A stretch of DNA of 56,023 nt, counting the filler, from Jimgerdemannia flammicorona (Eukaryota): NCBI GenBank assembly GCA_003990765.1. It is 2 parts of 2 records of this genome, joined end to end, with 100 filler letters (N's around TTAATTAATTAA, not from the genome) between each part and the next. Parts side by side here need not be neighbours in the genome. Positions count along the whole stretch, not along the records: positions 28,074 to 56,023 come from RBNJ01000591.1; 1 more part is not named here. One strand, given 5' to 3'. This document shows, in pieces, positions 2,525 to 55,339 of the stretch; position 1 is the first letter of the stretch; each line of letters begins with the position of its first letter. The position numbers were made by a program, and so were the translations under genes. The notes under the pieces are model-generated. The model made no database searches, was not told the origin of the DNA, and saw only the letters and a program-made list of their open reading frames with translations.

Positions 2525-3070
2525 ATCAGGCAGTAGTGGATCAGGGAGGTATAGACTGAGTTCATCATCTTCTGGAAGGTGGGGGGTATATTGCAGAGTC
2601 CAAAGGGTATTTGGAGGTATTCAAACAGTTTTCCTAGAGCAAGAAAGACTGTCTTTTGAATGTCCTTGGGGTCCATGGGGATCTCATGGAATCCTGCAAA
2701 GAGGTCTATACTGCTGAAGTATCTGGTATCTTGTAACTGATCCAAAAGGTCATCAATTCTGGGCAAAGGAGAGGCATCCTTTTTGGTGACTGAATTGAGT
2801 TTCCTGTAATCTACACAGAGTCTCCATCCTCCTTTCTTTGGTACAATAAGTATAGGACTGGCCCAGGGGCTGGTAGAGGGTTGGATGACTCCATTGTCTA
2901 GGAGTTCTTGAATGTGTTCTTTTTCGAATGTTTTTAAGTGATGGGGTATTCTATAGGGTTTCTGACAAATAGGTGTTGCATTTCCTGTATTTATGCTGTG
3001 ATGATATGATGGATTGTATGGCAGGTTATCATAATCAGTAGTGAAGATATCTTGATATTTATTGAGAAGT
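2525..3070 (-). pseudogene. Reverse transcriptase N-terminal half (gypsy type), truncated by the LTR insertion
   Basis: VIQPSTSPWASP...WRLCVDYRKLN...PRIDDLLDQL...PFGLCNIPPTFQ. Homology ends at CLIV|, at the LTR terminus. Confidence 0.9.
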
Positions 3071-3559
3071 TCTACTAGTTGTTGCTATTGTTGGGATGTC
3101 AATTCTTCTCCAATATTGGTGGAAGGCTTCACTGTTCCTGGGTCGCAGAGGGGCCTTTCCTTTCTTCAGAGACCTTTTGCTATTTCCTGATAGGTTTAGT
3201 TTGTAAACTTCCCTATGAGTTCGGTTGAGAAAAGGCACCAGATGTCCTATGATGGTTCCTTTCAGCAAGATGATGGTCTCCCAACTTTGGTTGGTTGCTT
3301 GGGAGTGTACTGGATTCATCTTATCAGAGAATGTATATCCCTCTATGTCCAGGTGTGGGATATCTTCCTTGGGTTCAAAGAAAAGGTTTCTGGGGTCCAG
3401 TGGTGCAAAGATTTCGAAGGTAGTTTATTCTCTAGGCTCCAGGATGAGATTCTTGTGCAGTCTGACTGGTTGCCAGTACACTTGCTGGAGAATATTCCTC
3501 TTGAGGTAGTTGACTTGAAGGAGGTATACTTCCTTCTTATCTGAACTTCCAAATCCTTT

Positions 3560-3950
3560 GGCTTATCTTGTTCCTTCAGTCAGTTCAGATACTTCTTGTA
3601 ATTGCAGGGTTCTGATCTTCATAAAGACTGCTTGGGCAATCTTCTGTCCTCTAATGATTCAGTGCCATTCTGTACTACTGTTGTGTAGAATGACCTTGAT
3701 TTCACCTATATATCCTGGGTCAATGGTTCCTCCTTCTACAGTTATTCCTTGTCTGGCAAGTCCAGACCTTGAGGTCAGTTGGATATAAGCTCCTTAGGGT
3801 GGCTGTATAGCTAATCCAGTTCTGATCATGAAGGTTTTTCCAGGCTTGATAGATTTATCCTCCAGACTGTGGAGATCATATCCTACATCCTCTGGGTGGG
3901 CTTTGGTCAGGGGTTTGGCCTTGGAATGCAGCAGGGCATACTGGGCAATG
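3560..3950 (-). pseudogene. dUTPase domain of element A pol
   Basis: Manual translation gives DVGYDLHS, TGLAIQPP, TSRSGLARQGI, GGTIDPGYIGEIKVIL and IAQAVF, the trimeric dUTPase motifs. Confidence 0.85.
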
Positions 3951-5110
3951 TCCTTACTGAGTTTGGGCTGACCTAAGGCTGAAGCTCTACTAGCAGAGAG
4001 CCTCCAAGCTCTAAGGTTGAGGTGTGGCCATCTGGCTCCAGTAGAGGGGTCTTAGAGATAGTTAATTCCTCTCTTTTCTGTAGGGTCTAGGGTCTCCATG
4101 AAGTTGGTGGTATCTTCTACCCATCTTTGGCAGGTCACATGTCTGATAAGAGCTAGGATGTCTTCCCCTAAATCATAGATCTTGAGAGTCCTTCTTCCTA
4201 GCTTCTTGGTCTTGTTTTTTGGATCTGGCCTCTGTTGTCTCCTCTCTTTAAAGTATGGATTGCAACATCATTACTGAGGTAAATCTTCTGATGTCTGCAG
4301 TCTCAGCAGTCTGGGTGTCTTCTATGGTTGCAATATCCCATTGCTTGAAAATGATATTCCCAGTTGTTGATCTCTTATTGTCTTGAGAATCAGTACCCGT
4401 CTTGGTCATAAGGTGGTAAAAGAGTAGACAAGGGGTATACTTCTGTCCAGGTAAAGGCCTTGTCCTCTGAATCAGCTTTACAATTTGGTAGTAACTTCTT
4501 GGAAGGTAGTTGACTGTGCAACTGTGTTTGGAGGTTCTGGTCTCTGGGGTCTCTGTCTCTTCTGTTGGTCTCATAGATGGCACTGATAGCAGTAGTCTCG
4601 GGGAGAGTGGAATACTATTTGGTGTGAATATCTTCCTAGCCGAAAAGCCTTTTCTTGGTGAGTTTCTTTCTTGGGGATAATGGAGATTATGCTGGGTCCT
4701 TCTTCAATATTCCAAGGGTCATTGTCTTCAGGTGGTGTCCAGCAAGGGTCATCTCAGGGAATGAGTTCAGAGATCTCTTCTTCTTCAGGTGCTTCTTGTT
4801 CAGGAACTTCTTGGTCAGAAGTTTCTTCTTCCTCAGATGATTCTTGATCCCAAATTGCTTGTACTTCTGCAGCTTCAGCTGCAGGTGTTTCTGGAACATG
4901 TCTGCATTTCTTCTTCTTCTTTCTACACTCTGGGCAGGCTGTGCCAGGCAAATTCCATGTCCCAATGATCTTGGAGAAGTGCTTGAGATATTTGTATCTC
5001 TTGAGGCAGATGGGGCATCCTTTGATTTCTCCTGCAATAGCTCCAATAGTAATGGGGACAATATTCTTGGCCCGCACATTGTCTTCTGGTCTGTCATTCA
5101 CCAGGTTAAT

Positions 5111-5692
5111 TCAGGGATTGAGTCTGGGATCATTTCCATCTTCACACTCTTCCTCTTCTTCTGTGGTGGATTTTTCACTGCTAGCATATTCCTCCTGAAT
5201 AGTAACCTTCTTCTTCTTTTTCAATTGCTTATAGCTGGTCACCTTAACTCTGTACTTCTTACCTTGGTAGTCAAACTTAAGTACTTGTTGACCAATATCA
5301 ACAACTGCATTCATTTCCTTCATCCAGTTGGTACCAAGAATCATATCATAGGTGACAGCTTCTGTAATAACAGCTTTGAGGATGGAGAACTGAATGTGTC
5401 CAAGAGAGATGGTAATATTTTGTACTTCTCCAAGGGGTTGAGTTTGGGCTCCATCTGCTACTATGATGCTGAGGTTGGATGGTCCATCAATGAGCCATTG
5501 GAGGGTGTCCAGAAATCGTTTGGCAATGATACAGACAGCTACTCCTGTATCTATGAGGATTTTTGCTTTTTGTCCTCCAATATCTCTATGTAAATAGATG
5601 CTGACATGTCTTTCCATGGCCTGAATAGGAATGGAAGCTGGTTCCTGCTGTGGGATGGGAACTTGGCCAGTGCTAGACCTGGTGGTTCTCAA
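5111..5692 (-). pseudogene. Retroviral-type aspartic protease of element A
   Basis: KILIDTGVAV and YDMILGTNWM in the track ORF. Confidence 0.85.
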
Positions 5693-7648
5693 TAATTTGT
5701 TTTAGACTGCAGCTGGTGTTAGTTGCAGGAACTGCAGGAGAGAGGCTTCTATCTTGGCTTCTTAAATCTTCTGCCAGACTTCATTATGGATGTCTCTAGG
5801 CATGGTTTTTGGGGTGTACTTCTTATTGGGCTTGGAAGCAGCAGGTTCCCATTCTTCTTGTTCTATTTCTTCATCTTCTGGTGGCAGCTCATTTGTTTCA
5901 GGGACAAATGGAGAGGGAGTTCAGAGAGGAGTTTCTACCTGCTCCTCCTCATGCTCTTCATCTTCTTCTTGGATGATTCTTCTGCTGATGTTCCTAGATG
6001 GCCTTCCAATAGGTCTCTTCCTCTTCTCTACTGGATAGACTGTTTTTCAGGTAGTGATCTTGGTAGGGTACAAGTCTAGGTCACTGTAGTTTTCACTGTT
6101 GCTTATTTCCTCGAAATATTCAACAGGATGGGCTTCAGCTTCCTGTACTGAGTGTTGTTCCTTTGGTTTGATGGTTCTGAGTCCCTTCAGTCACTTCTTT
6201 TGTTGTCACATTCAGTGGCATAGTGTCCAAATTGTCCACAGTGAAAGCATTGAACTTGAGCTCTGTCTTGGACAGGATATCTTCTTTCTTCTTACTGGTA
6301 ATTCCTGTTATCTTTTGGTGAATAGCCTTGGCTCCTCTGTGGTGGGTATCCTCTGTTGTCTTGATAACTCCAATTTTCATATGTGGTGAGTTTTTCAAAT
6401 TGTCCAACCAATTGGTCCAACTTGGAGCTGAGGTCTTGGATTTCACTTCTGTTCTTTTTTCCTTCCTTGGCTGGTCTTCTTTCTTCAGACCTTTCTTATC
6501 CTTGGAGGAGTCCTTGTAGTGCTTTGACCAGGGTGTCTTTTTTGTCTTCTTTCTTATCATGATCACTCCAGGTAGTTTCTTGTCTAATATCAAAGAATTC
6601 TTGGACTGCATCTACTTACTCTTCAGACCTTCTAATGCCTAGGGTGCAGATATGCTGGGCAATGTTTGGGGGAATTCCATTCATAAAGATCATTGGACCT
6701 ATGATGTCCTGGTTGGTGACATTGAACCCAGCAGCATGCATTCTCTTCTGGATTCTTATGAAGAAGGCTCTAGGTAATTCTCTAAGATTCACCTTCATCT
6801 CTATGATGGATTCTTGAGCCTTGTGGTGGGTTTCATTTCCTGCATACTTTTCAATGAGCCAGTGGACCATGACCACATATTCTAGCTCATAAGACATTGC
6901 TGCTTATATCTTTCTCATCAATTCTGAATCAGAGGTATCTGCTGTTTGGTGGAAAATTCCTCTGGCTGGTTCTCTGAGCTGTGCCTTGTAGATGGTGATT
7001 TTTCTTTCATCTAAGAGATTCCTCAGGGCTGCAATTCCTTCAATTCCATCAAGAAATTCTCTGGGGTCTTCCTCTGGGTATCCTGCAAAGGTTGGCAATG
7101 AGGTGGTCATTTCATCATCACTTTCTTCTAATTCTGGTTCTGGTTCAGATTCTGATTCTGATTCACTTTCTGAGCTGTCACTAGAGATGAGGGTACTTGG
7201 ATATCTTAAGGATGGTGCTCTGGGCCTTGGATGAAGTGGAATAAGCCTAGGTATTCTTATAGGAGCTACTTCTAATTCTGCAAGAGGTTGTGATAAGAGT
7301 TCTATTAGTGAGATTGATGGGACTGATATGGGGTATCTGGCTGTAAGATCTTGGGCTTGTGTAATAAGATCTTCTAGTTCTTGTACAAGTTCTTCAAAAT
7401 CTCCAGCAGGGCTACCAGTATTGTCTGGTTGATCTGGTTGGGGATTTTGAGCTGTACTGCCTTCTGGTTCTAGTTGGGATCCTTCTGATACTGGGTAGTT
7501 TGTAAGTCTTGATGTGATTACTTCTCTTTCTGTCCAGATGCTGGTGATAACTGATTCTCCTGTAGTGGCAGAGGTTGATGTTGTATCAAATGTATCCAGT
7601 TTGACTGTGGGTTCTTATGAGCTAAAAAGTCACATCGATTTGAAATCT

Positions 7649-16505: not shown

Positions 16506-17686
16506 CAGGGTCCTTTCTCTGCTACCTTACTGGTCACAAGGTTTGGTAGGCGACCTTTTGAGTCCCCTTTCCCCTATTATTACCCCCTCTACCTTGGGTT
16601 GGTTTGCTGTGCCTGCAGGGGCATAGTGGGAGGAGGGCAATGGTGATGAGTTGCCCCTTTATCAGTGTCAGATCAGTGCTTCCTCCACTTTTTCATGGAT
16701 TCTGGTGCCTTCAGCTGCGTCTGGGGTGTACCCATTTTGGTGCGGCATCTTCTTCCTTTTACCATTGCCAACAAGGTGTTGTCTCAGTATATCTCAGGCT
16801 ACATAGAGAGTCGGCCAACCTTGGGTGTCAAGTGCTCAGTATAGGTTACCTGCAGGTCCTTGGTGCCTGTGGTGGGGCCCTCTGGCTTTGGCGAGCTTCC
16901 TGGTGAGTGTGGTTCTGGCATAGGTGACTGCTTTTCAGGTGTTGTTGGGATGGGAGGGGAGATGGCTGTCACAGATAGGTGGAAGGACAATAACAGTGAA
17001 CCAGTAGGGTGCCAGGCTGGGGGCAGTCATCAGGGCTGGGGCAGGTGCTGCTTCAGTGGGGCCTTTTGATTGGTGCGGCATGGTTAGGTGGTAGGTGTCA
17101 CTATCAGCTTCTTTTGGCAGTCAGCGGGGTTGGGCCCCAGTCATCAGGGGGGGTCAGGAGGCCCGAGGCTACCTATTTCAGGTATCTTGGCTGCACTCAA
17201 CTGGAACCAGGAGCTGACATGGCAATGTGATCGAGGCCCACAGGCTTGAGTAGTGAGGTATTGGGGGTTTTCTCCCACCTCACATATAAGTCCTTTACTC
17301 ACCTCAACTGGGAGAACCAGACCCTACCCACCATATTGTGCTTTGATAAGAGTTTTTTATTTGCCTGTCATTCTCTTTGGGGTGGTAGGGGCTATTCTAT
17401 TCGGCTCGGGCATAGCCTTGTATATACATTGGGTTCTCAGGCATGCACTTTCAGTCGTTGGCATATGGTTGGGTTTCCCCTGGTGGTAGGGAGAGCATGG
17501 TGTGTAGAATGAGGTGCAGGCCTATCGGCCCTGCTGTGCCTGGTATGGTCGAGCTGCTGGATAATAGCTAGCCTAGGTTAATGGGGGGGCAGTGCTTGGT
17601 GGGTGGTGGGAGAGGGTTTTGGCCTATATAGTCTAGGTAAAAATCCACAGGACATGAGTCTGTTAAAAAAAAAAAAAAAAAAAAAA
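16506..17686 (+). mobile_element. 1.18-kb non-autonomous poly(A) retroposon (SINE-like), copy 1
   Basis: A22 tail at 17665-17686. Perfect 15-bp TSD GTAAGAGAAAGTACT at 16491-16505 and 17687-17701. Confidence 0.9.
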
Positions 17687-21408: not shown

Positions 21409-24400
21409 TGATTTAAGACGAATCCCTCACTTTCAAGCTGAACAACGAACAACCGCCACTACCTGAACAACCATACAAACTGAGCCCTAATATCCAGACA
21501 AGATAGATATAAGACCACCAGTATTCCACGGATATACCTCAGATGAATCAATCATCACCTTCATTGATGATTTCAAGCAGTATACTGCTGTAAGGACTCT
21601 GACAGCAGCACAGCAAGTAGCCCTCATGCCCTTCAGCCTATGAGATCCTGCCAGAGCAGCATTCACAGCCACAACCCATACAGGAAATAATGCCAATGCT
21701 ATACTGACAGCACAGAAGACCTGGCTCTGAAATACATATTATACAGACAAGATCAAGCAAGCCCTGAAGGATCAGCTCAATACAATATGCCAAGGAATGA
21801 GCAAAGATCCAAACACATTCTATACCAGAATTCGATATCAGATAATCCTTGCAGATTATGCAACTGCTATCCGAGATCAAGTAGCTGAAGCAACCTTCAT
21901 GAAAGGAGTCCATCCAGAAATAGCCATGGCCATCTGCTCATCACCAGTGATTCTGGATCTGCCACAGAAGGTCACCTATGCTCAGCAATACTAGATAGCC
22001 AGACATCCACAAGACCATACAATGGAAAGAGTTACAGGAGACAGAATTGAGGCACCTAAGTTAACCAGTGTGATCCCCACCACAATGATCAATCAAAACA
22101 CACCTCAGCCAAAAGCTACAGAGCAGCAAAAGAACAGTGACCCTATGGAGGAACTTGCCAAAAGATTTGCTGAAATGACTGCTCACCTGGGAGATGTGGT
22201 AAAGGAAATTCGAGGAAGAGACTGCTGCCCTGTTCAGAAGTTTGCCACCACCTCAGATAAGGAGAAAGGTACCTGCTACAGCTGTGGAGAAGAAGGCCAC
22301 TACTCCTATGAATGCATGAGTGAAACTAAGCACAAGGCTCAACCAAGCAATGCTACACAAAACAAGGAGCAGGCCAATACAATTACCTTCGAGGAAATTG
22401 GAGATTCTGATGAAGAAGAATGGGAGGCCTATCCTGCTCAGACTACTAAGAAGGATGTTTGCAAGGAATCCTACAAGAGACCACCAGGAAGACCCAAGAA
22501 GAACCCAGTAGAAAAGCAGATGGAAATGGCCACTGAAAGCCAGGCTGAAGAGATGGACCAGGATATGGAGCTGGAACAAGCAGTTCAAGATATCATCTGA
22601 GGAACCACCCCAGCCAGTGAAGGAGAAAAAGAAAAGAAGCTTTGCAAGACCAAGACCTTCAAGTATGATATCTTCAAGGACCTCAGTCAACAAAAAGTCA
22701 ATGCAACCTTTGGTCAGCTCACTGAAATCCCAACATTCAGACAGCAAATAAGGTTTGGACTTGCTAAAACAACTAAGGAACAAGGATGGAAGATAACTGA
22801 GGCCAATAATGTTCAAGAGGACTCAGGAGAAGAAAGTGAGGACAATTGCAAAACCTCTGCATATGCAACATGCCAAATTGAAGATGGAATCTTTGAAGCC
22901 ATCATTGATACAGGAGTGGGAGGATGTCTCCTCAGCAAGAAGGCAGCAGACTGCCTAGGTTGGGATGTGGAAGAAGCAACTAAGCTGGTATTTGTCACAG
23001 CTGATGGCACAAGAGCCACACCTCTGGGAAAGATCCAAGATGTTCCTATTAAGATTGGAGGAGCAACCATCCCAGTAGATGTAATTGTAACCAATGCCAC
23101 CAACTATGACATCCTCATCAGCAATCAGTGGCTTCACAAAGCCAAGGCAGTAATTGATCTCAATGCCCAGAAGATGCAGATCACCTACCAGGGACAGAAG
23201 ATATGAATTTCCATTAATGTCAACAAAGGAGTCCTGCCTGACATGGAGGAAGAAGAAAGTGAGCAAGAGGAAGCTTATATGGTGACTACTCCAAAGAAGA
23301 AGAAAGTTGGATAGATAAGTGAAAAAAAATGGTGCAAGAAGATCACAGAAGGCTATATACCACAAGGAGTCTGTCTTCATGGGATCAAGATGTACTGCAT
23401 AGAGCATGTCAATGATTGCTACCAGTGCACCATCGGAATCAAGAAGATCCACCAGGAAAGAAGGCAGAAAGCTCTCGAAAAACAGATCAGAGAAGAAGAG
23501 AAGGAGGAAGATGATGAACCACCAGCCCTCCTGGAGGACAGTGATGATGAAGGAGAAATCAAGGTCAAGATTCGAAAGATCCACCCTGACGCAGTCTTGC
23601 CAGAATACAAGTCAGAAAATGCAGCCGGAATGGATATCGCTACAGTAGAAGAGACTGTACTGGAACCCCAGACAACCACCCTACTTGCAACCGGACTGGA
23701 GATGACTATTCCAAAAGACCATGTTGGGATACTCAAGACAAGAAGTAGCCTGGCCAGAAGTGAAATTACTATCGAAGGAGAAGTCATCGATTCAGACTAT
23801 ACTGGAGAAATTCTGCTCATTGCTAGGAATCGCAATCCTACAATTCCATTCCCAGTTAGAAAAGTTCCACTACCACTTGGCTGGAAGACACTTCACCATC
23901 TAGACGGACCACTCAGCTCTCACCTGGCTACTGACAACTGGACAACCTAAAGGAATCTATGCCAGATGGATAATGAAGTTACAAGCCTATGATGTAACCA
24001 TTGTACACTGCCCTGGAAGAACAAATTCCAATGCAGATACTCTCTCATGGACACCTCGAAACACCTCCAACCAACAAACCAATCATGAATAAAGAACTCT
24101 ACTATAGAATCATCACATATCTGGGACAGCGAAAGATGCCCCAATATCTGGAAGAATGGATGCAAATGATTATCAACAGAACATAGAAACAATTCGAAAC
24201 CGATGGAGAAACACTGAAGAAAGGAAAACTACTAGTCATACCAGAACACAAGAAGGAGCAAGTGATGAAATCAGTACATGAACTTGGCCATCTAGGAGGA
24301 ACGAATACATATGACAAGGCAAGAAGAACAATGTGGTGGCCAGGGATGGAGGAAGATATCAGACAATTCATCAAGACCTGCAACAAATGCCAGAAACAGA

Positions 24401-25266
24401 AACAAGACCAACGAAATTGAACCCCAGGATCAGCATATATAGAACTAGTACCATTTGTCCACATTGCAATGGATGTAATCAGCCCTCTACCCTTGACTTT
24501 GACTGGCAACTGATACATCATCGTCATTGTAGACCTTTTTACAAAATGGATAGAAGTAGGACCCCTTATGGAAGCCAATGCACAGTCAATCACCAATTTC
24601 TTTCACAAAGAAATCATCTGCTGGTTCAAGACCCCAACACAAGTAACTACAGATAGAGGAACAGAATTTGTGAACCAGTTCTTCGAAGTTCTCTACAAGA
24701 AGTACAAGATCCAGCATATTTGGACCACAGCATATCACCCTCAAGGAAATGGACAAGTAAAAAGGACCAACAAAACCCTCAAGAACATTATTGCCAAGAT
24801 CTGCAATAACTATGAGAACTGGGATCACTATCTGCCAATAGCATTATCTGCTCTCCAGGAATCCAATCACAAAGTACCCATTTTACCCCTCGAGAAATGC
24901 TATTCAGAGAAAAATGTTCTCAGGGAACCCTATTGTCCAATGGAGATGCTGTATGGAAACATGTGGATATGGAAATATGGAGACTACACCAAATCAGGAA
25001 GAAGGCTGAGGATTACATAACCAAGGCGCAGACACTACAATGGAGGAATGCAGAAAAGACCCACAAACTCTTGGAGATTATCAAGATAGGAGACAAAGTC
25101 CTAGTGTATCAGAATATGGTAGAAGCTTCATGGTCATGGAAACTGGAGCCCAAGTGGGAAGGACCTTACCTGGTGCAAGATATAAAAGAGACCACCTTTT
25201 GGCTACGAAAACCCTCAGGCTCAATAATCCCCACTACTATTCACCGAAACTGACTCAAGAAATATC

Positions 25267-27973: not shown

Positions 27974-28073
27974 NNNNNNNNNNNNNNNNNNNNNNNNNNN
28001 NNNNNNNNNNNNNNNNNTTAATTAATTAANNNNNNNNNNNNNNNNNNNNNNNNNNNNNNNNNNNNNNNNNNNN
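27974..28073. other. Artificial contig-joining spacer
   Basis: Exactly 100 nt: 44 N + TTAATTAATTAA (stop codons in all six frames) + 44 N. Confidence 0.95.
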
Positions 28074-28137
28074 TTTTGCACTTCTCTTGTTGGTTTACTC
28101 ATTGTGGAATGCAATTTCAATTTCTCCTTTTTGCAGG

Positions 28138-31100
28138 AGACGAAATCATCGCCGCTGAAGCAACGTGTCGATTCTCACCATGCGATCCCGCTACCTTCAT
28201 CGACTCACAACTCGGATCGGAGTGCGACGAATAACTTTGTTGGACCTAGACGACATAGCAGTTCTGAGGGGATGACTAATAATCGGCTACCACTTAATGA
28301 TTCCACGATACCCCCGATGCCACCTATGCCCACACGTGACTTTACGAAAATCTCCTCGTCCGTATCTTACCCTGCTGGTCAGGAACATACTTTCGGCTTA
28401 TCGAGCTCTCCATCACCAAGACTCTCGCCTAGTAGCAGCATGCTGGCGGCTCCTCAGAAACTCCGACAGAAATCATCCAAGAGCCTCCTCAACATTGTTA
28501 ATCAAACGCGATCGTCCATCATTACCACCACCCTCACTACTCTTCACAGTAGCCTTGTCAACAATTCCGAGAAGCTTGTTAGTTCACTCATGTCAATGAG
28601 AACCAGTCGTGAACCGGCTCCGTTTCCGACCGACAAGTTATCCGAGATTGCTGAAATTGCGCTGAAGATGGTTGATATTGTTGATTGGGAGGAGGGTACA
28701 GGCGAGTTGTCCCAAGCCGGCATGCATGGAGCGATTGCAGAAATTCAGGGTCAGATCATATCAGGAGCTCGGATGGACAATCCCAACATGATGGAATATC
28801 TCGAGAAAGGCAGAAAATCAAACGACAAAAGGAAAGAAGATCCCAATGATGTAACCTTGAAGAACGTCAAGGAGATAGTGAGTATATGTTTCTTAAAACA
28901 ATGGCAATTAATATAAAATGGTATCTGGTACGTTCATCATGCTATTGCACCTAATAATATCTCCGTATGTTCACCACACGTACAGGTTTCCTCGATGAAA
29001 CACATTGCAAACCAGTGCATGTCACAATATTACAGGACTTTCGAAAAGGCTATGGTCATCCCTTCGAAAGGATGGAAAATAGAGGGACGTAATCGCGCAG
29101 ATGACGACACTGATCTCAACGATAATTTTTATGGTATGGGCGCTCAACACCCACACTTCGAGGGGACCTGTTCTGCGAGACCAGATTACAGAAAGTGGGA
29201 AATCGAGCACGTTGACGTTGGTGCGCAATGGTTCCGCGAATACTTTATTGGTAATGACTACAGAACATATTGCGGCCAAGTGGACGAGGAGTATATGTTA
29301 GTTACAATTGTTAGGGAACCAGTGGATACATCCAGCTCCGTCACTCCCCCCGAGATGCAATACCGAGTAATCGTCAGGACCAAAGACGTGAGTTCTCTTC
29401 TTACTCTCTGATGGGTACATTGTCGGTTTTCAAGGAGCAGTATTCATCGGGATCTCGGCTTATATTATCGTTACATTATATTCTTCTCTATAGTTACCGG
29501 ATGTGCGCAAGGTTATCCCCGATTCCTTCCTCTTGACCGTGCCGGCATCACCACCCTCCTCCTCCTTAGCGCGGTGGAAACCACTTGTGTCTAATTCGGC
29601 GGCGTGGGAAACCGTTCTTCGAACTGCTTCTTCCAGAATTGTCGTCAGCAAGATGAAGACACTGACCGCAGACCAGATGGTTGCCTCGGGATTGGAGAAG
29701 AAACTCCTAAATTTTGACGAGACTGCTGTGAGTGTGAGAGTGATCATGAGTACCTTTTTTTTTTTTTCTCTTTTCTTTTTCCTCTGGATTTTCGTGCTTG
29801 GATTTGTTTCGAAGTTTATTGAGTAATGTGGTTCAATCCCCGCCCCCCCCTTCTTTTTCTTCTTTTTCATCTAGCTTCATGATCGTTATAAGTTCGGTGT
29901 TCTATATATCAAGGAAGGTCAAACAAAAGAGGAAGAGTGGTTCTCCAATCCACACGATTCCCAAAAGTTTGACCAATTCCTGGACATTTTGGGATCCAAA
30001 ATTGATTTGCAAGGATACACGGGGTGGGCCGGTGGTTTGGATACAAAAAGTGAGATATGGCATTTGGTGTAGTTCAGATAACTCTTCAATTCTTGTTCTC
30101 TACTCTCTGTTTGATTAGATTGACTTATTTATTTCTCTCTGTAGGCGGTGACTCTGGAACATACACTTACACTCAGACGTGGAAAGACTGTGAATTGACA
30201 TACCACGTGGCTACTCTCATTCCTGCAACACCTGGCGATAAACAACAAATTCAAAGGAAGAGACATATCGGCAACGGTATGTAAAACCTCTCTTTTCCTG
30301 CGCTATCACGGATTGCAGTTCAAATTCTATCTCATTCATACGGACGCACAATCTTCATCAACACAGATATCGTTTGCGTGGTTTTTGTTGAAGATGCCCA
30401 GCCATTTAACCCAGCGGCCATTAAATCTCAGTTCTTGCATGTCTTCATCGTTGTTCATGAGGAGAAACGAGACAACCGTGTTATATACAGGTAATATAAA
30501 CGCGGTTGTTTGGTTATTTATATATGTTTTTTTCTGTCCTTGCCTCGTGCCAGTTCCTCAATTTCGTACGATTCTTTATTTTTTTAGAGTTGAGGTGGTA
30601 ACGAACGAAAATGTTCCCAATTTCGGACCTCCTCTTCCCGAACCCGCGGTTTTCACCGAAATAGACGAAATGAAGGCATTTATTCTGATTAAATGTAGGT
30701 AAAAATATTTTATGAGATTTATTGATTGAGGGAAGTTCTGGTTGACTAAATTGAAATTTATCTATTTTAATTGCACAATAATAGTGATTAACGCTGAAAA
30801 TGCTGCGTTGAGATCCCCAAAATTTGCTGTGCCAAATGCCCGAGCGCGTGTGGGAAATATCGAGAACCTCGTTAAAGACGCTTGGAAAGAGGCAGTTGAA
30901 ATTGACGCTCCCTCAATCCTAAGGCAGACGAAATCAACATCATCATCTTCGGATAAGAGTCAACGCAGCATGCGCAGCACGAGGACAATCCCTGAACGTG
31001 ACGATTCTTTACCGTTGATTGGGAGTGGAGTAGAAACGTCTTTGTCCGAAAAGTTGGGTACTCAGAAGCACAGCGTGATGAAAGAACTGTCCGATGGATT

Positions 31101-31892
31101 TACAAGTCTGACGCGACGAAACAGTAGGAAGAAGAACGAACTAGACAACCGTACCGCGAGGTCAGGGAGGCCAAAAAAATTTGTGAAGCCTGACGGAGAG
31201 GATTTCGACAGTAAGCATTTTACATTTGATTTCCCAAACTTTGCCATACAGGTAATGCGCATTTACAATTATCATTGTCGGATTCTTATAAGAACTCGGC
31301 CATTTTTCTATATAGATACGAAGCGCAGTTTTTCGGATCAAGATTTACTCTCCACAATCTCTGAGGCGGAGTCGTCCCAAGCACAATCGATAGTCCCCAT
31401 GCCGACTGTGAGCAACATGAGACAAAAGATGGCGCCATTCAATGTCACCCCGAGCACGAGCTCTGCCAGAGCATCCGGAGGATCAATTGAATCGTCAGGT
31501 ATAAATTTTTTCAACTCCGAGATTATTCTCTATCATTCCGATCTTCCATTTTGCCACGAATTTCGACGTCAACTAAATCATCTTTCACGAATCTGTATTA
31601 ATCACTCACCTCTCCAATAGAAAAGGGATTCAGAAATCGCAAACAGAGCATCCTAAGCAACATCACCCGCCGCGGAGAGCACGACGGATCGGGCAGTGGG
31701 AGCCAGCCGATAAATATTCCACGATACGGATCCCAACAACAGTTCTTGGAGGAAGACCCCGCGCAAAGAGATAGAGCAATGTCGCAGGGATATGAACGTG
31801 GCAAGTCATTTGATTTCTTGAGCCGCAAGAGTCATGAAAGTTTATCTCGATTCGTGGGAAAGGGTAAATCCGACCCTAAGTTCGAACTATGA
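28138..31892 (+). CDS. Rap/Ran-GAP domain protein (Rap1GAP/SIPA1-like), multi-exon, 5' end missing
   Basis: Spliced GT-AG exons give YKFGVLYIKEGQTKEEEWFSN, GWAGGLD, YHVATLIP, QQIQRKRHIGND (Asn thumb) and IKSQFLHVFIVV. Stop TGA at 31890-31892. Confidence 0.92.
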
Positions 31893-32030
31893 CGTTAAGT
31901 GGATTCATTCAAACGCCAAATTATTGGTGGGAGCGAGAAAAGGCGTAAAAGCAGTGAGCAGGCTTCTCAGCTGCTGACATCATGACAATTATTATTGTTT
32001 TTTTTTTTTTGTTTTTTTTTTTCAGGTTTT

Positions 32031-32077
<47 letters not shown>

Positions 32078-32768
32078 TTTTTTTTTTTCAGGTTTATTTC
32101 TCTCTTTCCTTGTTACTCTGGTTATCTATTTGCGTTCTGGCTGTTTTCATTTGATACAGTCACATTTTGCATACACCCCTCTCCCTTTTCTGCATTCATG
32201 AAGTTCGTTGATTTGGGGGGTTTGAGCATTAGTACCGGAGTCTTTAATCAACCCTTTTTTTATTCATTTTTCTGGTCGGACAATATTTTCGCTTGTAAAC
32301 CGATTCATGGGTTTTCTGGATACCATGTCCGTAATCTAGTTTTTATTATATATGTAATCTTTAGTGCATCGTTGCCTACATCGTCTGTTTATTCTTGCCG
32401 TCTTTGTCGCATTCTTCCCTGTATCAACATTTTCACATCATTTCCAGTTTACCACATTCACTTTTGTCATTTGTTCATCGCTCTCTGATCTTGCTCATCA
32501 TCGTTCTCGTAGCATCTTTGTCCAAATCAATTGCATGCCAGCACTCCATGTTCAAAATGAAAAAAGAGAGAGAGAAAAGAGAAGAATCCATATTCCTTCT
32601 CCGTAACCCGCCCCACCAAAATCTTGACTTCTTCCTTGTGTTTGCGATCATGCTCGAGCACTATGTATTTCCATGGGGCTTTTCGCAGTTGAACTACATT
32701 TGCCATATCTGCATGTCTAATATGTGGTTGTCGAGATTGTTACCTTAGCAATTAGCTACAGATGCAAG

Positions 32769-33034
32769 CTAGTCCCCGGCTTGTACACGTCGGGTACTTT
32801 CACCCCCCCCCGAATTTGAGTTAGAGTTTGGTTTGCTTGGGTGGTGACCAGAATAAACATTAAATGAGGTAACAGGCCATGATCACTGATCTGGGGTTGC
32901 CGTGCTGGATGGTCCAAAAAGAGCGACAACCGCATTCTTCCTTAAGGCTTTGGATCGGAAGTTTAGTATCTGGTAAAAATCAAGCAAATTAAGGATAAAA
33001 TGATTACTTACTATATAAGGGGGATGTCACAGTT
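32769..33034 (-). ncRNA. Candidate omegaRNA / transposon 3' end downstream of Fanzor1
   Basis: Position 3' of the Fanzor1 stop. Stems at 32937-32961 (CTTCC/GGAAG), 32895-32931 (GGTTGTCG/CGGCAACC with inner TGGA/TCCA) and 32775-32794. Function is inferred. Confidence 0.45.
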
Positions 33035-34584
33035 CTAAGCCGGACGAGCGAAGACCTCAGGCATCTGGTTTCCATTCATCGCCATGTGGAGAGCAATGGA
33101 TCGGAGGTTCTTGGCAGCATTAATGTCTCTGGGATCCAGTCGTCACCTGTTCGCTCACGGACACGTTCCAGGGAGTCCAGCATCTGACACTTGGAGCACA
33201 CCTTGGACGAGCAGAATTTGGGGACCTTGATGGAGCACAGAATACTTCTCAGGACACACCAGCTCTCTTCCCTTTTATGGTAGGCAAGAAGATGGCATCT
33301 CCGAATGCCACCACTATCTGCTTCAGTTCATTGTGAGGTTCTGTGCACTTCCACTTTGTGCTGCATGGACTGGCATCAATAGAATCACCAGAGGGAGACA
33401 GGTTTGACTCAGAGGCTCCTTGCCCCTTTCTCTGCTACCTTACTGGTCACAAGGTTTGGTAGGCAACCTTCCAAGTTCCCTTTCCCCTATTATTATCCCC
33501 TCTACTTCAGGTTGGTTTGCTGTGCCTGTATGGATATGGTGGGAGGAGGGCAATGGTGATGAGTTACCTCTTTATTAGTGTCAGATTGGTGTCTTCTCCA
33601 CTTTTTTGCAGTTTCTGATGCCTTCAGCTATGTCTGGAGTATATCCGTTTTGGTGCGGCACCTTCTTCCTTTTGCTATTGCTAATAAGGTGGTGTCTCGG
33701 TGTATTCCAGGCTATATAGGGAGTCAGCCGACCTTAGGCATCAAGTGCTTAGTATAGATTATCTGCAGGTTCTTGGTACTTGTAGTGGGGCCCTCTGGCT
33801 TTGGTGAGCTTCCCGACAAGCTAGTTCTGGCATAGGTGACTGCTTTTCAGGTGTTGTTGGGATGAGAGGAGAGATGGTCATCACAGATAGGAGAAAGGGT
33901 AATAACAGTGGGCCAGTAGGGTGCCAGGCTGGGGACAGTTATCAGGGCTGGGGCAGGTGCTGTTTTGGTGGGGTCTTTTGATTGGTGTGGTATAGTTAGG
34001 TAGTAGGTATCACTCTCGGCTCTTTTGGTGGGTTGGTGGATTAGGTCCTAGTCATCAGGGGGGGTCAGGGGGCCTGAGGCTACCTATTTTAGGCATCTTG
34101 GCTATACTTAACTGGAACTGAGAGCTGACATGGCAATGTGATCAAGGCCTACAGGCTTGAGTAGTAGAGTATTGGGGGTCTCCTCCCACCTTATATATAA
34201 GTTCTTTACTCACCTCGACTGAGAAAACTAGGCCCTATCTACCATATTATACTTTGATGAGAGTTTTTCTTTGTCTGTTATTCTCTTTGGGGTGGCAGGG
34301 GCTATTCTATTCAGCTCAGGCATGGCCTTATACATATGTTGGGTTCTCGGGCATATACTTTCAGTCATTGGCATATGGTTGGATTTCCCCTGGTGGTAGG
34401 AAGAGCATAGTGTGCAGAATGAGATACAGGCCACTATAGACCCTGTTGCACCTGGTATGGTCAAGCTGCTGAACAATAGCTAGCCTAGGTTAATGGGGGG
34501 GCAGTGCTTGGTGGGTAGTAGGGAAGGGTTTTGGCCTATATAGTCTAGGTTCTCTTCTAATAAAAATCTACAGAACATGAGTCC

Positions 34585-34652
<68 letters not shown>

Positions 34653-36640
34653 CTCAGAGACTCCTACTATCTCTTCACCTAATCTACTATACTTCTTGCT
34701 ACCAGTTGTAAACTGCTGGCACACCTCTCTGCCAGAGCCTTCTGGTATCCTCAGTACTGCTAAAACTGTAATTTCCTCTATCTGTTATTATAGAATTATA
34801 CCAGTATCTTGTATTTCTAGAGATTCTGCTTAACAAAGGTATTGAATTTGGTAATACTGGTTATCTTGTAGATTATTTAGGATTACTTGCAGTCTATTCT
34901 CCTTCTTTCTCCATTCCTCTTTCTTTTTCTTGGCCTTGTTTCACCTAGTAATATAGTAGAACTTCTTAATTAAGATCTTTTATATCTTATATGCTACATT
35001 TGCATATCTGTCTATTATGATGAATATATCTTTAGATTGACACTCTATAGCCAGTCTCTCATAAGATCTAACTGAATATTTATCATCATCTTCTCTACTA
35101 CTACTGTCTACTTAGACTAATTAAGGAGAAAGTTTACTACTATTTTATTACTTCTGACTATATTCCAGAACTAATACTTCTGAGTATTTATATCTTTCAA
35201 GAATACAATATCAATTTTGATAAAGTTAAATATATTTCAGAATAGTTCATAGTCATCTATATCTATGGTCTTGCCTTTTATATATCAGATGAGACAGATC
35301 AATATTTGTCTATCAATCTTAATAAACTATTATTAATATAAATATAAGAAGTAGAATATAAACACTAGACCTCCTTTGAAGCAATATTCATCTTTGGTCA
35401 AAATATCTTTATCTCAATCTTTAACTATATCTTATAAATAAGTTTTACTAAATATAAGTGAGACTTTTTAGATAATTGACTAATACAGGCCTTGGGCAAA
35501 GTATTTATCTAGAAATATATGATAGAATAATAGATACTAATAATAAGTCTTCTTGTATAGTCTTTGATAACTACTTCTACTTTACCAGCTTGGTCTGCTC
35601 TTTTCTCCTTATCTAGCTTAGTGGTAGATTAGTTCTTTTAGATAGTTTATATATATATATAATATATCTTTTTTTCAAAAGACTTGAGTATATGATAAAA
35701 GAAAGATATATATATATATATACATATATGTATATAAGACTTAGTAAATAGCACTTCTTTTATTACTAATATTAGTTTTAGCATAATATTCTTAGTGATC
35801 TCATTAATGATTATCTTTAGCCTATTTGTTTTCTTTATAAAAAAAAGACTATACTCTAGTCAGATTAGTTCATCTCTTATAAATAAAAGTAGTTAGCCTC
35901 TTCAAATCCTTATTGGCTATTTTGATATTCTTTTTGTTGACAGTCTCATAAAGCTGAAAGAATATATACTTCTTTATCTTTATATCAAAATTAGCAATAA
36001 TGTAATTTTGGATATATATTTTTTTTTTATATTTACTATAGATTTAAATAGAGTATATCAGAATAGACCTATATTAGATATAGGGAGAATATTGGGACAG
36101 AGATTTATAACTAGATATATATTTGCTATAAGTTAGTAAAAGTTATTTTTTATAGATCAAGTAGATATTTGAGATCTTTATATATTATTAGCTATATGTA
36201 ATATATATATAAGAAGCTCTGTCTATAGCAATTACTCTCTAAGGTACTATACTTCTCTATATAGTATAAGAAGTAGTAATTAGTAAGCAGTATAGTCTTA
36301 TATATAATATTATAGATATTTTTGATAGTAACAGAAATCTTCTATTATAGACCTAATATCTAACAGATTCTCTCATACTTAGTTTTGATAGTAAAGACTT
36401 TAAGATTACTATTAAAGACCAACTTTGTCTATTGATACTTATTCTTCTTATAATAGAATAAAGCTTATAAGTATAAAAGTATATATCTTGAGCAGAGTTA
36501 TTGTTCTTAATATATATAAGATAAGGATAAAGAGATCACTGTTTGAAGGTCTGGATGATATCTTCAGCTCACTATACTATCCTCTTTTTTGCTCTAATAT
36601 TTTCTTTCTCTATCTTTGTTTGGAATTTTTACTTTAGTAT
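33035..36640 (-). pseudogene. Fanzor1 (eukaryotic TnpB-derived RNA-guided nuclease), degenerate, split by a retroposon at 33421-34665
   Basis: Little-mutated C-terminus: IVVAFGDA, KVPKFCSSKVCSKC, RDINAAKNL and MPEVFARP*. Middle region FY..R.RKL.F..Y.G.QKALAEVC..FTTGSKKY. RuvC-I relic L*SVNL (from LWGVDP) at 35033-35050. Possible start ATACTAAAGTAAAAA (from MPKRK) at 36640. Confidence 0.85.
33421..34650 (+). mobile_element. Poly(A) retroposon, copy 2, inserted in Fanzor1
   Basis: Homologous to 16506-17686. Long A tail ends at 34650. TSD GACTCAGAG(G/A)CTCCT at 33406-33420 and 34651-34665. Confidence 0.9.
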
Positions 36641-36732: not shown

Positions 36733-37013
36733 ATAATTAGTACTTCTAATAAATCAAATCAAATCAAAGAATTAATTTGAAATTTGATTTAAACTCTATT
36801 TTTCAAAATGTAATAACTTAATAAAAACATATCCAAATTTAACAATTGTTAGCTTGTTATATTGCTATATATAAGAGAAATCTAATAAGCTAAAAATTAT
36901 TAAATTTTGATATATTTTCATTAAGTTATTATATTTTAAAAAATAGAGTTCAAATTAGATCTTCAATTTAATTTAATTCAAATTGATTCAATTTGTTTAA
37001 GAGTACTAATTAT
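36733..37013. repeat. AT-rich foldback / long-TIR MITE-like element
   Basis: Terminal ATAATTAGTACT / AGTACTAATTAT, plus inverted arms of more than 100 bp (36788-36848 pairs with 36895-36955). Confidence 0.7.
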
Positions 37014-37432
37014 AATGTTACTACTGAAGTAAATTTTCCCTATATTATTAATACTTTTTAATTAAATATACTAGTTACTTTGCTACAGTCTTGGCTCTCC
37101 AATCTTTTTATTTATCCTTCCTATCATAGATATTTTTCTTTGATAGTAGCTTTCTTGATATTCTTGATAGACTATTTCTAATGCTTGGCTTTCATCAAGT
37201 TGATGTAAATTTAAATGAATCTCTAGTCTTTGATCTGTCATTTATTAACTTTAACTATTTTCTCTTTTTATAACTTTTCTCTAAAGTATCTTTTATAGTA
37301 ATATTTATATTACTATAGTAAAGAACATCAAGAATAGTACATATATTTACATATTATCACCTTACTCACTTATATTATACTAGTTTGCTAATCTCATGAT
37401 ATATAATAGAGATCTTGTCCTCTATCTATACT

Positions 37433-37700
37433 TATCCCTTAGATGGTATGGAAACGTCTTTTAAGCAGTGATTTTTTAATTGAAAAAATCTGATTTTTTC
37501 AAGTTTGCATTTTCTGTTAGAAATATAACTCAATTCATCTAAATTCAAAATTTTATTTTTATATAAAATTTTACCCAAAGGTAAAAAAATATATAAAAAA
37601 TCAATAATTTCAATGTTTTTGAAAAGTTATTATTATTTTCAGACTTATGAATTTTCAAAAATTTGCAGCCATATTTGGCTACATTACCATCTAAGGGATA
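37433..37700. mobile_element. MITE with perfect 16-bp TIRs
   Basis: TATCCCTTAGATGGTA / TACCATCTAAGGGATA. The outer TA may be the TSD. Related to 10716-10963. Confidence 0.8.
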
Positions 37701-37724
37701 GCTTTACTTTAACTTCTATCTTTA

Positions 37725-37737
<13 letters not shown>

Positions 37738-37755
<18 letters not shown>

Positions 37756-38927
37756 TTTTAATAGACTCAAAGTTCTGTGGATTTTTATTAGAAGGGAACC
37801 TAGACTATATAGACCAAAACTCTCTCCCACCACCCATCAAGCACTGCCTCCCCATTAACCTAGGCTAGCTATTGTCCAGCAGCTTGACCATGCCAGGTGC
37901 AGTAGAGTCTATAGTGGCCCATATCTCATTCTATATACTATACTCTTCCTATCACCAGAGAGAACTCAGATATGTCAATAACCAAAAGTATATGCCCAAG
38001 ATCCCATTGTATGTACAAGACTATGTCTGAGCTGAATAGAATAGCTTCTGCCACCTTAAAGAGAATGACAGACAAAGAAAAACTCTCATCAAAGTATATC
38101 ATAGTAGATAGGACCTGATTCTCCCAGTCAAGGTGAGTAAAGGACTTACATATAAGATAAGAAGAGACCCCCAATACCCCACTACTCAAGCCTGTAGGCC
38201 TTGATCATATTGCTATATCAGCTTCCAGTTTTAGTTAAGTATAGCCAAGATACCTGAAATGGGTAGCCTCAGGCCCCCTGACCCCCTCAATGACCAGGAC
38301 CCAATCTGCTGAATTGTTAAAAGAAGCTGAGAGTGACACCTACCACCTAACTGCTCTGCACCAATCAAAAGATCTCATCAAAGCAGTACCTGCCTAGCTC
38401 CAATAACTGCTCTCAGCCTAATACTCTACTGGTTCACTGTAATTACTCTTCCTTTTATCTGTAATGGCCATCTCCCCTCTCATCCTAATATTACCTAAAA
38501 AACAGTCACCTACACCAGAACTGTACTTGCTGGGAAGCTTACCAAAGCCAGAGGGCCACACTATAGGCACCAAGGACCTATAGATAATCTACATTAGGCA
38601 CTTGATGTCTAAGGTCGATTAACTCTCTATATAACTCATAACATACTGAGACAGCATCTTGTTGGTGACAATAAAAGGAAGAAAGTACTGCACCAAAATA
38701 GATGTACTCCAGATGCAGCCAAAGGCACCAGAAACTATGAAAAAGTAAAGAAGATACTAATCAGATACTAATAAAAGAGCAACTCATCACTATTACCTCT
38801 CTTCCTCCCACTGCTCTGCAATAGATACAGCAAACCAACCCAAGGTAGAGGGGGTAATAATTATGGAAAGTGGACTTGGAAGGTTGCCTACCAAACCATT
38901 GTGACTGGTAAGATAGTAGAGAAAGAG
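37738..38927 (-). mobile_element. Poly(A) retroposon, copy 3
   Basis: Poly(T) at 37738-37759, followed by the full-length reverse complement of copies 1 and 2. Confidence 0.88.
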
Positions 38928-39412
38928 ATATATTAGTATATATTTCTTATAAACTTATGGTTTATTAAGAAAGTCTACATTCTTATCTTTCTTGCTCTTT
39001 TCATCCATAACTACAAATACAATAACATACAAACTAGCAAGCTCAGGGCCCCAATTATGTTGCTCATTATATTGTATATTGGTTTTTATCTTTTTTTTTT
39101 TTTTAATGGACTTTATATTAGTTTTTATCTATCAGTAAATCTAATATGCTTAGAAAGAATACCTCTGGACAGCCAGGTGCACATGCTGGTCTGGCTATTT
39201 TTATTGCACCCTCATGATTCGAATTGACAACAGGTTCGGAATGCTGATAAATACATTTAAATCAAACAGATTGCTAGCATGCCTATGGAATTTTGAACTG
39301 TATTCTTAATAAACTCACCAAAGCCGGCCCGTGACTGCTTCCTCTATAGATTGTATTTCCACACTTATCCTCTCTTGTCCTTTATTCCTTTATTCCGGCT
39401 TCGCTTTCGACA

Positions 39413-54719: not shown

Positions 54720-54782
<63 letters not shown>

Positions 54783-55339
54783 GACTCAATATTCTGCAGA
54801 TTTTATTAAAAAGGAACCTAAACTATATAGGCCAAAACTCTCCCCTACTATTATCTTCCCATTAATCTAGATTACTGAATTATCTTGCAGTCTCACTATT
54901 CTTGCTATATATATCAGATATGCTGATTTCTATTATATAGATTAGACTTATCTATTTATCAAGGCTAGATTATCTTGATCATACATAAGAGTATATCTAT
55001 ATGTCAGATCTAATAATGCTGAGACTGAATAAGAAATAGCCCTCTGAACTCCAAATAAAGATCTAAGATAAAGAAAAATCTCCCAACTAGTCAACAGAAG
55101 ATAGAATAGATTTAGAGTGAGTGAGTAAAAAACTTATATATAAGATCTCTTCAAAAGGACTGACATATGGACTAAGGCTTAAAAAAGCCCTACTCTCACT
55201 CTTTGAGCCTGTGGACCTCAATTACATTACTATATCAGTTCTTAGTTCTAGTTGGATACTACTAAATGAGAGGTTTTACTCCTCAAGTCTGTAAGTCTCA
55301 ATTATATTACTGTATCAGCTCTTAATTTTAGTTAGATAC
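54720..55339 (-). mobile_element. Divergent relative of the poly(A) retroposon, decayed, interrupted by an LTR
   Basis: Poly(T) at 54720-54779. The next ~100 bp and 55190-55260 match copy 3; the middle differs. A ~57-bp block is duplicated (55205-55261 and 55285-55341). Confidence 0.65.

Follow-up and report, generated by a model that had tools for sequence, protein, structure and literature searches.

The 3' tail of a fungal Fanzor1 family, of which a decayed copy lies in a DNA window of Jimgerdemannia flammicorona (56,023 nucleotides, filler included), is laid out in a way that suggests an omegaRNA with a spliceosomal intron set into its second stem, the spliced form of which would be the working guide. 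We assign this reading a probability of about 0.45. The tail layout of the family was observed directly, and from it we infer expression, splicing, binding and cleavage. In close relatives the tail runs through a hairpin, an ATCCC linker, a donor, a variable T-rich body, CTAA, YAG and YYTTAA, in that order; in the window the conserved tail comprises 104 bases on the minus strand (33045-32942).

The window consists of CpG-free repeat blocks interleaved with CpG-normal genes. The initial annotation had placed the end of a Fanzor1 gene at the segment that it flagged (32769-33034), and tblastn and alignments to relatives bore this out. With the 812-aa protein of L001, the most intact related locus, tblastn matched the window at 36622-34689 in several frames (E down to 1e-14), and the alignment as a whole runs from 36622 to 33041 on the minus strand. 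The gene is real but dead in the window. Its 5' and middle part (34650-36640, minus strand) is fully CpG-eroded, with 0 CpG left, carries many stops and frameshifts and has lost the RuvC-I DPG motif. The 3' part (33035-33404, minus strand), recognizable by VAFGD, VPKFCSSKVC and RDINAAKN, has two frameshifts; there the RuvC-II E has become K (VPKFCSSKVC) and half of the zinc finger is deleted, with RDINAAKN intact. The present stop is TAG (33037-33035) and the ancestral one TGA (33029-33027). Fanzor1 was recognized by a RuvC triad, consisting of DPG, RD and a catalytic E that precedes the zinc finger by six residues, and by a TDG-type WED motif. Intact relatives carry RSDG, GVDPG, VPEF.[ST]S.VC and RDVNA, the third reading VPEFRTSKVC in L001, and the window gene aligns to them piecewise at 25-71%, with two catalytic motifs (DPG and E) lost. 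The loci examined encode only Fanzor. On the plus strand, a Rap-GAP gene (about 28000-32580, Pfam Rap_GAP match) is convergent with the Fanzor1 gene; contigs from three RNA or probable-RNA runs end at 32541-32582, within its probable 3' UTR (32130-32582, plus strand) and short of the flagged segment, a weak hint.

A poly(A)-tailed LINE-like repeat (33425-34646, plus strand) sits in the Fanzor gene, flanked by a target duplication of ~15 nt as read from its junctions; the tail and the duplication point to its LINE identity. Other copies lie in the window at 16512-17686 (plus strand), 37703-38925 (minus; matched part 37738-38925) and 54720-54850 (minus), and many unrelated flanks adjoin the repeat boundary at 33422-33425 in runs X1 and X2. 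Because three copies and many X1 and X2 contigs share one 5' stop point, the repeat may be a full-length 1.2-kb non-autonomous retroelement, not a randomly truncated LINE. LTR-retroelement remnants were also seen at 2410-7614 (minus strand) and at 21995-25020 (plus strand), the latter having a dUTPase domain that separates protease from integrase. An AT-rich palindrome with 93-nt arms (36733-37013) lies immediately upstream of where the Fanzor gene starts, and L001 too has inverted repeats (719-1055) upstream of its Fanzor gene. A 14-bp inverted repeat bounds ~270 bp at 37434-37700, by eye possibly a small MITE in the left part of the element, and further insertions obscure 37430-39200. Upstream of the Fanzor element in L001, positions 100-590 have short inverted ends, which we take to resemble those of a PIF/Tourist MITE.

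A HMMER search with a 51-aa piece of the window gave eight matches, of which three clear relatives (P0003, P0007 and P0008) were used and the other five, in multiple stretches and at low identity, were left out. Two further protein searches returned 6 and 12 proteins, mostly with PF07282, and the homologs that carry a species name come from Absidia and Klebsormidium, at 26-29% (Absidia 28%). The distant Absidia homolog, together with the style of the introns, suggests that the host is an early-diverging fungus. In the PDB, the 51-aa piece had chance matches only, and sequence searches otherwise found only TnpB-like chains and the Fanzor2 L79, weakly. Pfam gave no match on the three Fanzor pieces of the window, a word-indexed homolog search with a window piece kept none of seven candidates, and alignment A1 matched 0 of 76 viral contigs and 0 of 69 genome contigs. 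A metagenome scan yielded 11 related loci out of 295 candidates. With L004 identical to L005, L006 and L009 agreeing at 99%, and L008 cut off short of the C-terminus, these loci represent six close lineages and two distant ones (L010 and L011). Another 47 distant TnpB-like loci, viral or prokaryotic (L017-L063), served as controls only. Four loci from the end-motif pattern (L012-L015) proved to be one phage family lacking Fanzor and were put down to chance, and L016, from the hairpin pattern, was rejected as bacterial sequence lacking Fanzor; the hairpin pattern had 0 viral matches. In the metatranscriptome run X3, a short related-Fanzor1 contig at 33185-33230 retains residues that are deleted in the window copy.

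Sequence comparison places the right end of the element very probably at TTAA (32942), perhaps 1-3 nt further. Four close lineages (L001, L003, L004/L005 and L007) share with the window a tail ending CTGYAG-YY-TTAA. The eight bases before TTAA are identical at 5-8 of 8 positions among these relatives, and at 4-5 of 8 against the window, where bases are deleted; of the 30 bases after TTAA, 7-12 are identical, and for L003 0-2 of 7. A contig in run X1, taken as another copy of the window's Fanzor1 element family, matches 32987-32949, then reads CTGCAG-CC-TTAA and then enters a different flank. The X1 copy shows that the window has lost ~11 nt before AG. Since similarity is lost right after YY-TTAA in the relatives and in X1, 32941-32769 is likely flank, and CC-TTAA (32942-32947, minus strand) forms the putative right end as well as the predicted 3' strand of a terminal stem. 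YY before TTAA (CC, CT or TC) occurs in the window, X1, L001, L003, L004/L005 and L007 and is absent from L006/L009. By analogy with published Fanzor1 omegaRNAs, which reach 14-15 nt past the conserved end (PMC10432273; here and below, published systems are compared through the consulted parts of the cited papers), the first 15 nt of the flank (32927-32941, minus strand) are the predicted guide of the window copy.

This right end resembles that of Kolobok (PMC9587614): the window, the X1 copy and four of the five close lineages reaching far enough all have YY-TTAA, and Kolobok DNA transposons occur in fungi (PMC9587614). Kolobok is further described by a 5'-RR left terminus, terminal inverted repeats, a duplicated TTAA and a DDE transposase (PMC9587614), whereas here only the right end was seen. 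No inverted copy of the right-end motif was found in any locus, and neither a motif search nor nhmmer found a left end; TTAA-GG ~915 nt before the ATG of L001 is a candidate left end, unconfirmed. YY-TTAA fits Kolobok, yet a left end and an inverted repeat were not found, and the element is therefore not assigned to Kolobok. The Fanzor carriers named in the consulted part of a 2026 review (PMC13565253) do not include Kolobok, and literature searches and the consulted parts of the cited papers showed no Kolobok-borne Fanzor.

The tail opens with a hairpin over the ancestral TGA (33026-33045, minus strand), which z-scores, pairing and covariation lead us to predict as omegaRNA stem-loop 1; the scaffold probably begins here, though with less assurance than for the right end. 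The stem-loop has 7-8 bp, a 7-nt loop and one bulged base in L001, L002, L003 and L006 (z -3.85, -2.81, -1.85 and -3.29, respectively). In the window 6 bp are left, weakened by a C-to-T change (z +0.61), and the structure is lost in the deletion-damaged L004 (+0.56) and L007 (+0.22). Among 81 sliding windows scanned over four loci, which were picked for having the hairpin, the hairpin window had the lowest mean z (-2.22; median -0.03). Across five aligned rows 91% of cells paired, compared with 20-49% in slid controls, and 14 of 500 shuffles scored as high. One compensatory pair is clean (L001); L006 supplies two more, in a stem with shifted register. The proteins of the relatives end SGSNP, SGSEP or SGPKP at the hairpin. 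In the distant L010 and L011, too, a bulged hairpin of this kind spans the stop (z -1.5 and -0.7, respectively); with the four pyrimidines and the CTGCA that follow it before the sequences diverge (L010:785-825 and L011:540-574), it is a candidate for a minimal intron-less omegaRNA. After the hairpin, alignment and folds place the ATCCC linker and the bases predicted to form the 5' side of the terminal stem (CCTTA, 33020-33016) at 33012-33025 on the minus strand, the linker being similar to the AATCCC that follows the first stem of the SpuFz1 scaffold. Assembled contigs of the three runs do not cover 33023-33116.

Between the linker and the right end lies an intron-like unit (32948-33011, minus strand), with the donor GTAAGT at 33011-33006, a T-rich body, a branch-like TACTAAA at 32968-32962 and a relic acceptor AAG at 32950-32948. 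The unit measures 64 nt in the window, ~11 nt less than in the X1 copy, and 76-99 nt in relatives, close to the size of six likely Rap-GAP introns (~90-145 nt, placed by eye). Shortly after the hairpin the donor reads GTAAGT, GTACGT or GTAAGC. The body of 37-62 nt is 38-52% T and mostly aligns poorly, with more than 5% of shuffles scoring as well in 15 of 21 pairs. When loci were scored for GTA[AC]G[TC] 80-160 nt after RDxN and then RCTAA 40-75 nt on, donor and branch were detected in the window and in 8 of 11 loci (six of six close lineages, neither distant one, one locus being truncated). The TnpB-like controls had them in 0 of 47 cases, and random anchors in the window in 0.34%. As the patterns had been defined on the very loci in which they were counted, and all controls are viral or prokaryotic, the figures show enrichment but fall short of proof. 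Donor, branch and acceptor follow in order at canonical spacing in L001, L003, L004/L005 and L007, where YAG-YYTTAA stands 26-27 nt after the branch A; in the X1 copy it comes after the same motif. L002 has donor and branch, after which its contig ends, and L006/L009 have a donor and CTAA with no AG within 80 nt. The acceptor is thus found in four of five close lineages that extend far enough and is damaged in the window; L004 has an earlier AG at 10 nt. No spliced contigs were seen, and the sole RNA-like contig over the unit, from run X1, keeps the 3' half of the intron (depth ~110, 39-nt match, strand unspecified; X1 is presumed RNA by guess). These sequence features incline us, by a modest measure, to regard the unit as a real spliceosomal intron. 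As a separate observation, the ORF at L001:3908-3993 reads through the donor, and its unspliced frame stops within the branch motif; splicing would make a stop codon TAA out of the terminal TTAA.

In live copies, a single transcript would contain the ORF, the tail and the flank, with the intron occupying the loop of the second stem. Splicing would join stem-loop 1 and the linker to YYTTAA and ~15 nt of flank, and the product would carry a flank-derived guide on a ~47-nt scaffold whose closing stem, 5-7 bp long, would take in TTAA. Unlike in bacterial IStrons, scaffold and guide would stay joined after splicing, and the nuclease would cut empty TTAA sites matching the guide. The window copy is itself inactive, with its two catalytic motifs lost, its hairpin decayed and ~11 nt deleted before the acceptor. 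In four of five spliced models, and in two of five unspliced ones (L003 and L004), the bases just before the donor pair with those just after the acceptor, through TTAA, which would make the intron the stem 2 loop; in L001 this terminal stem was absent from both. In a duplex control, the share of controls as good was 0 of 1140 for L003, 6% for the window and L004, 19% for L007 and 71% for L001, so the result is strong only for L003. We tentatively extend the proposal, at lower odds, to a fungal Fanzor1 clade, possibly including the structurally solved PpFz1 of Parasitella parasitica, that would mature its guide by the spliceosome, with the acceptor 6 nt from the transposon end.

The boundaries and the hairpin could also hold for an unspliced omegaRNA of ~130 nt that works as it is, the intron being neutral or, in a loose parallel to IStrons, an off-switch or an mRNA 3' UTR control. 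We consider this rather unlikely. It would suit the X1 contig, with its retained 3' half, and the terminal stems that L003 and L004 make unspliced. SpuFz1 can do without the distal part of its stem 2 (PMC10432273), which suggests that a large loop is tolerable, and Fanzor1 omegaRNAs span 75 to 150 nt (PMC11423790). On the other hand, the terminal stem is made by twice as many spliced as unspliced models, and since splicing here would keep the scaffold on the guide, there is no obvious conflict.

Another explanation, which we hold to be unlikely, is that nothing is spliced and that GTAAG, TACTAA-YTTCC and CTGCAG are omegaRNA contact motifs and transposase-binding end motifs. Conservation extends beyond CTAA, where a 14-mer is identical in the window and L001, and TTCCGA in the tail is also the 5' start of the SpuFz1 scaffold. 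By reading, GTAAG lies within PpFz1 stem-loop 2. CTGCA directly adjoins the hairpin in the intron-less L010 and L011, so CTGCAG may be an end motif, and the missing acceptor of L006/L009 would be accommodated as well. In addition, CTAA stands near the end in only one of six Rap-GAP introns; the element motif is therefore kept beyond the needs of host splicing and may be an end or RNA motif. What speaks against this explanation is that four of the five close lineages reaching far enough keep all three signals, canonically ordered and spaced, about a variable, T-rich body of intron size, and that inspection found no common 7-bp stem in the ~30 nt from TTCC to TTAA. The spliced omegaRNA remains the reading that we prefer.

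The initial annotation had described 32769-33034 as a structured, CpG-retaining region holding a candidate omegaRNA and an element terminus. All the motifs that it named were found on the minus strand where it had put them, and its three hairpins all occur in the minimum-energy fold. CTTCC (32961-32957) pairs with GGAAG (32941-32937), GGTTGTCG (32931-32924) pairs with CGGCAACC (32902-32895), enclosing TGGACCATCCA (32916-32906), and CCCGAC (32794-32789) pairs with GCCGGG (32780-32775), followed by GACTAG (32774-32769) and then C. As a whole the region is not unusually structured: a 281-nt fold had z +0.70, with 149 of 200 shuffles folding as well, and hand-picked sub-windows ranged from -2.1 to +0.6 (including -2.1, -1.7 and -0.9). 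Retention of CpG is real but part of a gradient. Observed/expected CpG is 0.38 for the ORF tail, then 0.67 (33045-32942), 0.63 (32941-32769) and 0.71 (32768-32583); the 3' UTR of Rap-GAP has 0.86 and the last exon of that gene 1.21, so retention follows nearness to the host gene. An omegaRNA and an element end were rightly expected just downstream of the Fanzor1 gene; their position and type were not as proposed, the best omegaRNA candidate beginning at 33045, slightly upstream of the flagged interval. About 170 of the 266 flagged bases turned out to be likely flank, unshared by other Fanzor1 copies, an outcome that the initial annotation had itself named first as refuting its proposal. This putative flanking DNA (32769-32941, minus strand), conserved in no relative, takes in two of the three hairpins, those of GGTTGTCG and of CTAG; the third straddles the boundary, with one arm on each side. 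With neither arm inside the conserved tail, the pairing of GGTTGTCG with CGGCAACC was dropped as a candidate functional stem. Rfam gave 0 matches on the flagged region.

The suggested likeness to the SpuFz1 scaffold held insofar as the 10-mer CGGTTGTCGC does occur in the published 75-nt scaffold, in which TTGTCG, from a reading of the printed sequence, is the loop of stem-loop 1. The corresponding loop fold is unfavourable here, since forcing it on the window costs ~11 kcal/mol (-6.6 vs -17.5). The match was judged to be chance, with ~0.02 matches expected by arithmetic for one scaffold and ~0.15 over the published Fanzor1 RNAs. For the Helitron 3' end that had been proposed, a 3' hairpin and CTRR at a repeat boundary, then T, were looked for. 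The base after CTAG is C, the boundary maps to 32942, and, where the window is CpG-normal, 7 of 40 CTAG sites follow a hairpin at least as stable. No Helitron domain was found among 25 translated stretches of the window.

In run X1, a 151-nt contig (depth 2.1) aligns to 32631-32774, differing by 5 substitutions and 7 gap letters, and suggests that this intergenic DNA has a paralog or a diverged allele; it is one sign against 32941-32769 being flank. The contig reads through CTAG and therefore lends no support to a Helitron end either. This diverged contig and the SpuFz1-like 10-mer would fit an insertion of Fanzor into a small repeat of separate origin, or into an unrelated ghost element bearing a guide, of which 32941-32630 would be the part seen as flank. 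We think this improbable, as there is only the one contig at that depth, the window holds no second copy and a diverged allele would look alike; 32788-32928 is uncovered in all three runs, a gap to which we gave no evidential weight in itself. Most improbable of all, and largely refuted by the loss of conservation after TTAA in four relatives and the X1 copy as well as by the fold energies and CTAG counts above, is an omegaRNA at ~32961-32895 with a SpuFz1-like core in a Helitron ending in CTAG at 32769, even though the 10-mer, the perhaps partly repeated DNA of the X1 contig and the occurrence of Fanzor1 in Helitrons (PMC3627910) would favour it. The observations of the initial annotation were thus partly confirmed and its interpretation partly supported.

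The predicted omegaRNA agrees in several respects with that of SpuFz1 (Spu-1 of Spizellomyces punctatus; Saito et al. 2023, PMC10432273), which has a 7-bp first stem-loop, an (A)ATCCC linker and a flank-derived guide, and in which the second stem takes in the target duplication and closes at the end of the element; guide and second stem are predictions here. More generally, the solved Fanzor1 RNAs all start with a 7-bp stem (PMC11423790), and Fanzor1 scaffolds close in a stem that includes the target duplication (PMC10711439, PMC13565253). Unlike SpuFz1, the family described here has another loop sequence, a hairpin over the stop codon and an intron-like unit in place of stem 2; its end is TTAA as opposed to TA (PMC10432273), and no terminal inverted repeats were found here.

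PpFz1 (Xu et al. 2024, PMC11423790) is likewise a fungal Fanzor1 of ~800 aa, and its scaffold, the smallest known, is about the size predicted here after splicing (PMC11423790). From a reading of the printed rows, PpFz1 has CAG-GTAAGC at a similar distance after stem-loop 1; the PpFz1 RNA and the window tail share no alignable sequence beyond short motifs. In two PpFz1 RNAs (IDs 58 and 59, PMC10432273 supplement), CAG-GTAAGC comes 12 nt after the first stem, and 21 of the next 22 nt are shared. The RNA with ID 59, 89 nt long, reaches ACTAAT and a pyrimidine tract and stops where G would complete TAG; it possibly contains an unrecognised intron of ~50 nt. In contrast to the maturation proposed here, PpFz1 is described with unspliced yeast-made RNA, and the word intron is absent from the main text (PMC11423790); PpFz1 cuts DNA with such RNA retaining GTAAGC (PMC11423790), which weighs against the spliced form as the working guide. 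For IDs 58 and 59 the TAM is missing in the 2023 table (PMC10432273), and the TAM ATN was found for one PpFz1 in 2024 (PMC11423790).

IStrons, which combine a group I intron with a TnpB omegaRNA (PMC10690162, PMC13565253), offer a parallel in that the transcript is both splicing substrate and guide RNA, as proposed here, and that the 3' splice site lies at the right end of the element, as predicted here. They are bacterial, self-splicing and element-wide, and splicing severs their scaffold from the guide (PMC10690162, PMC13565253), whereas here a short spliceosomal-type unit would lie inside the scaffold and the guide would stay attached. Fanzors are also known to gain spliceosomal introns (Jiang et al. 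2023, PMC10530073); that work concerns intron density at Fanzor loci, in contrast to the intron within a guide RNA proposed here. Literature searches and the consulted parts of the cited papers yielded no spliceosomal intron inside an omegaRNA.

The window copy is a fossil, and the interest lies in the tail layout of its Fanzor1 family. An element that ends in YY-TTAA and carries a Fanzor would be a type of carrier beyond those listed in the consulted part of the 2026 review (PMC13565253). The predicted scaffold of ~47 nt would be among the smallest natural ones and useful for compact editors. If PpFz1-type RNAs carry the intron, their native guide would come from the downstream exon, which could explain both the nearly identical apparent guide (21 of 22 nt) in two families and the TAM missing in 2023. 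How Fanzor guide RNAs leave a eukaryotic transcript has been stated to be undetermined (PMC10690162), and an intron within the scaffold would provide a direct test of guide excision from such a transcript. If the proposal is true, guides mapped in budding yeast or E. coli would have been mis-assigned for a fungal Fanzor1 clade, and this family would provide the first RNA-guided nuclease with a spliceosome-matured guide.
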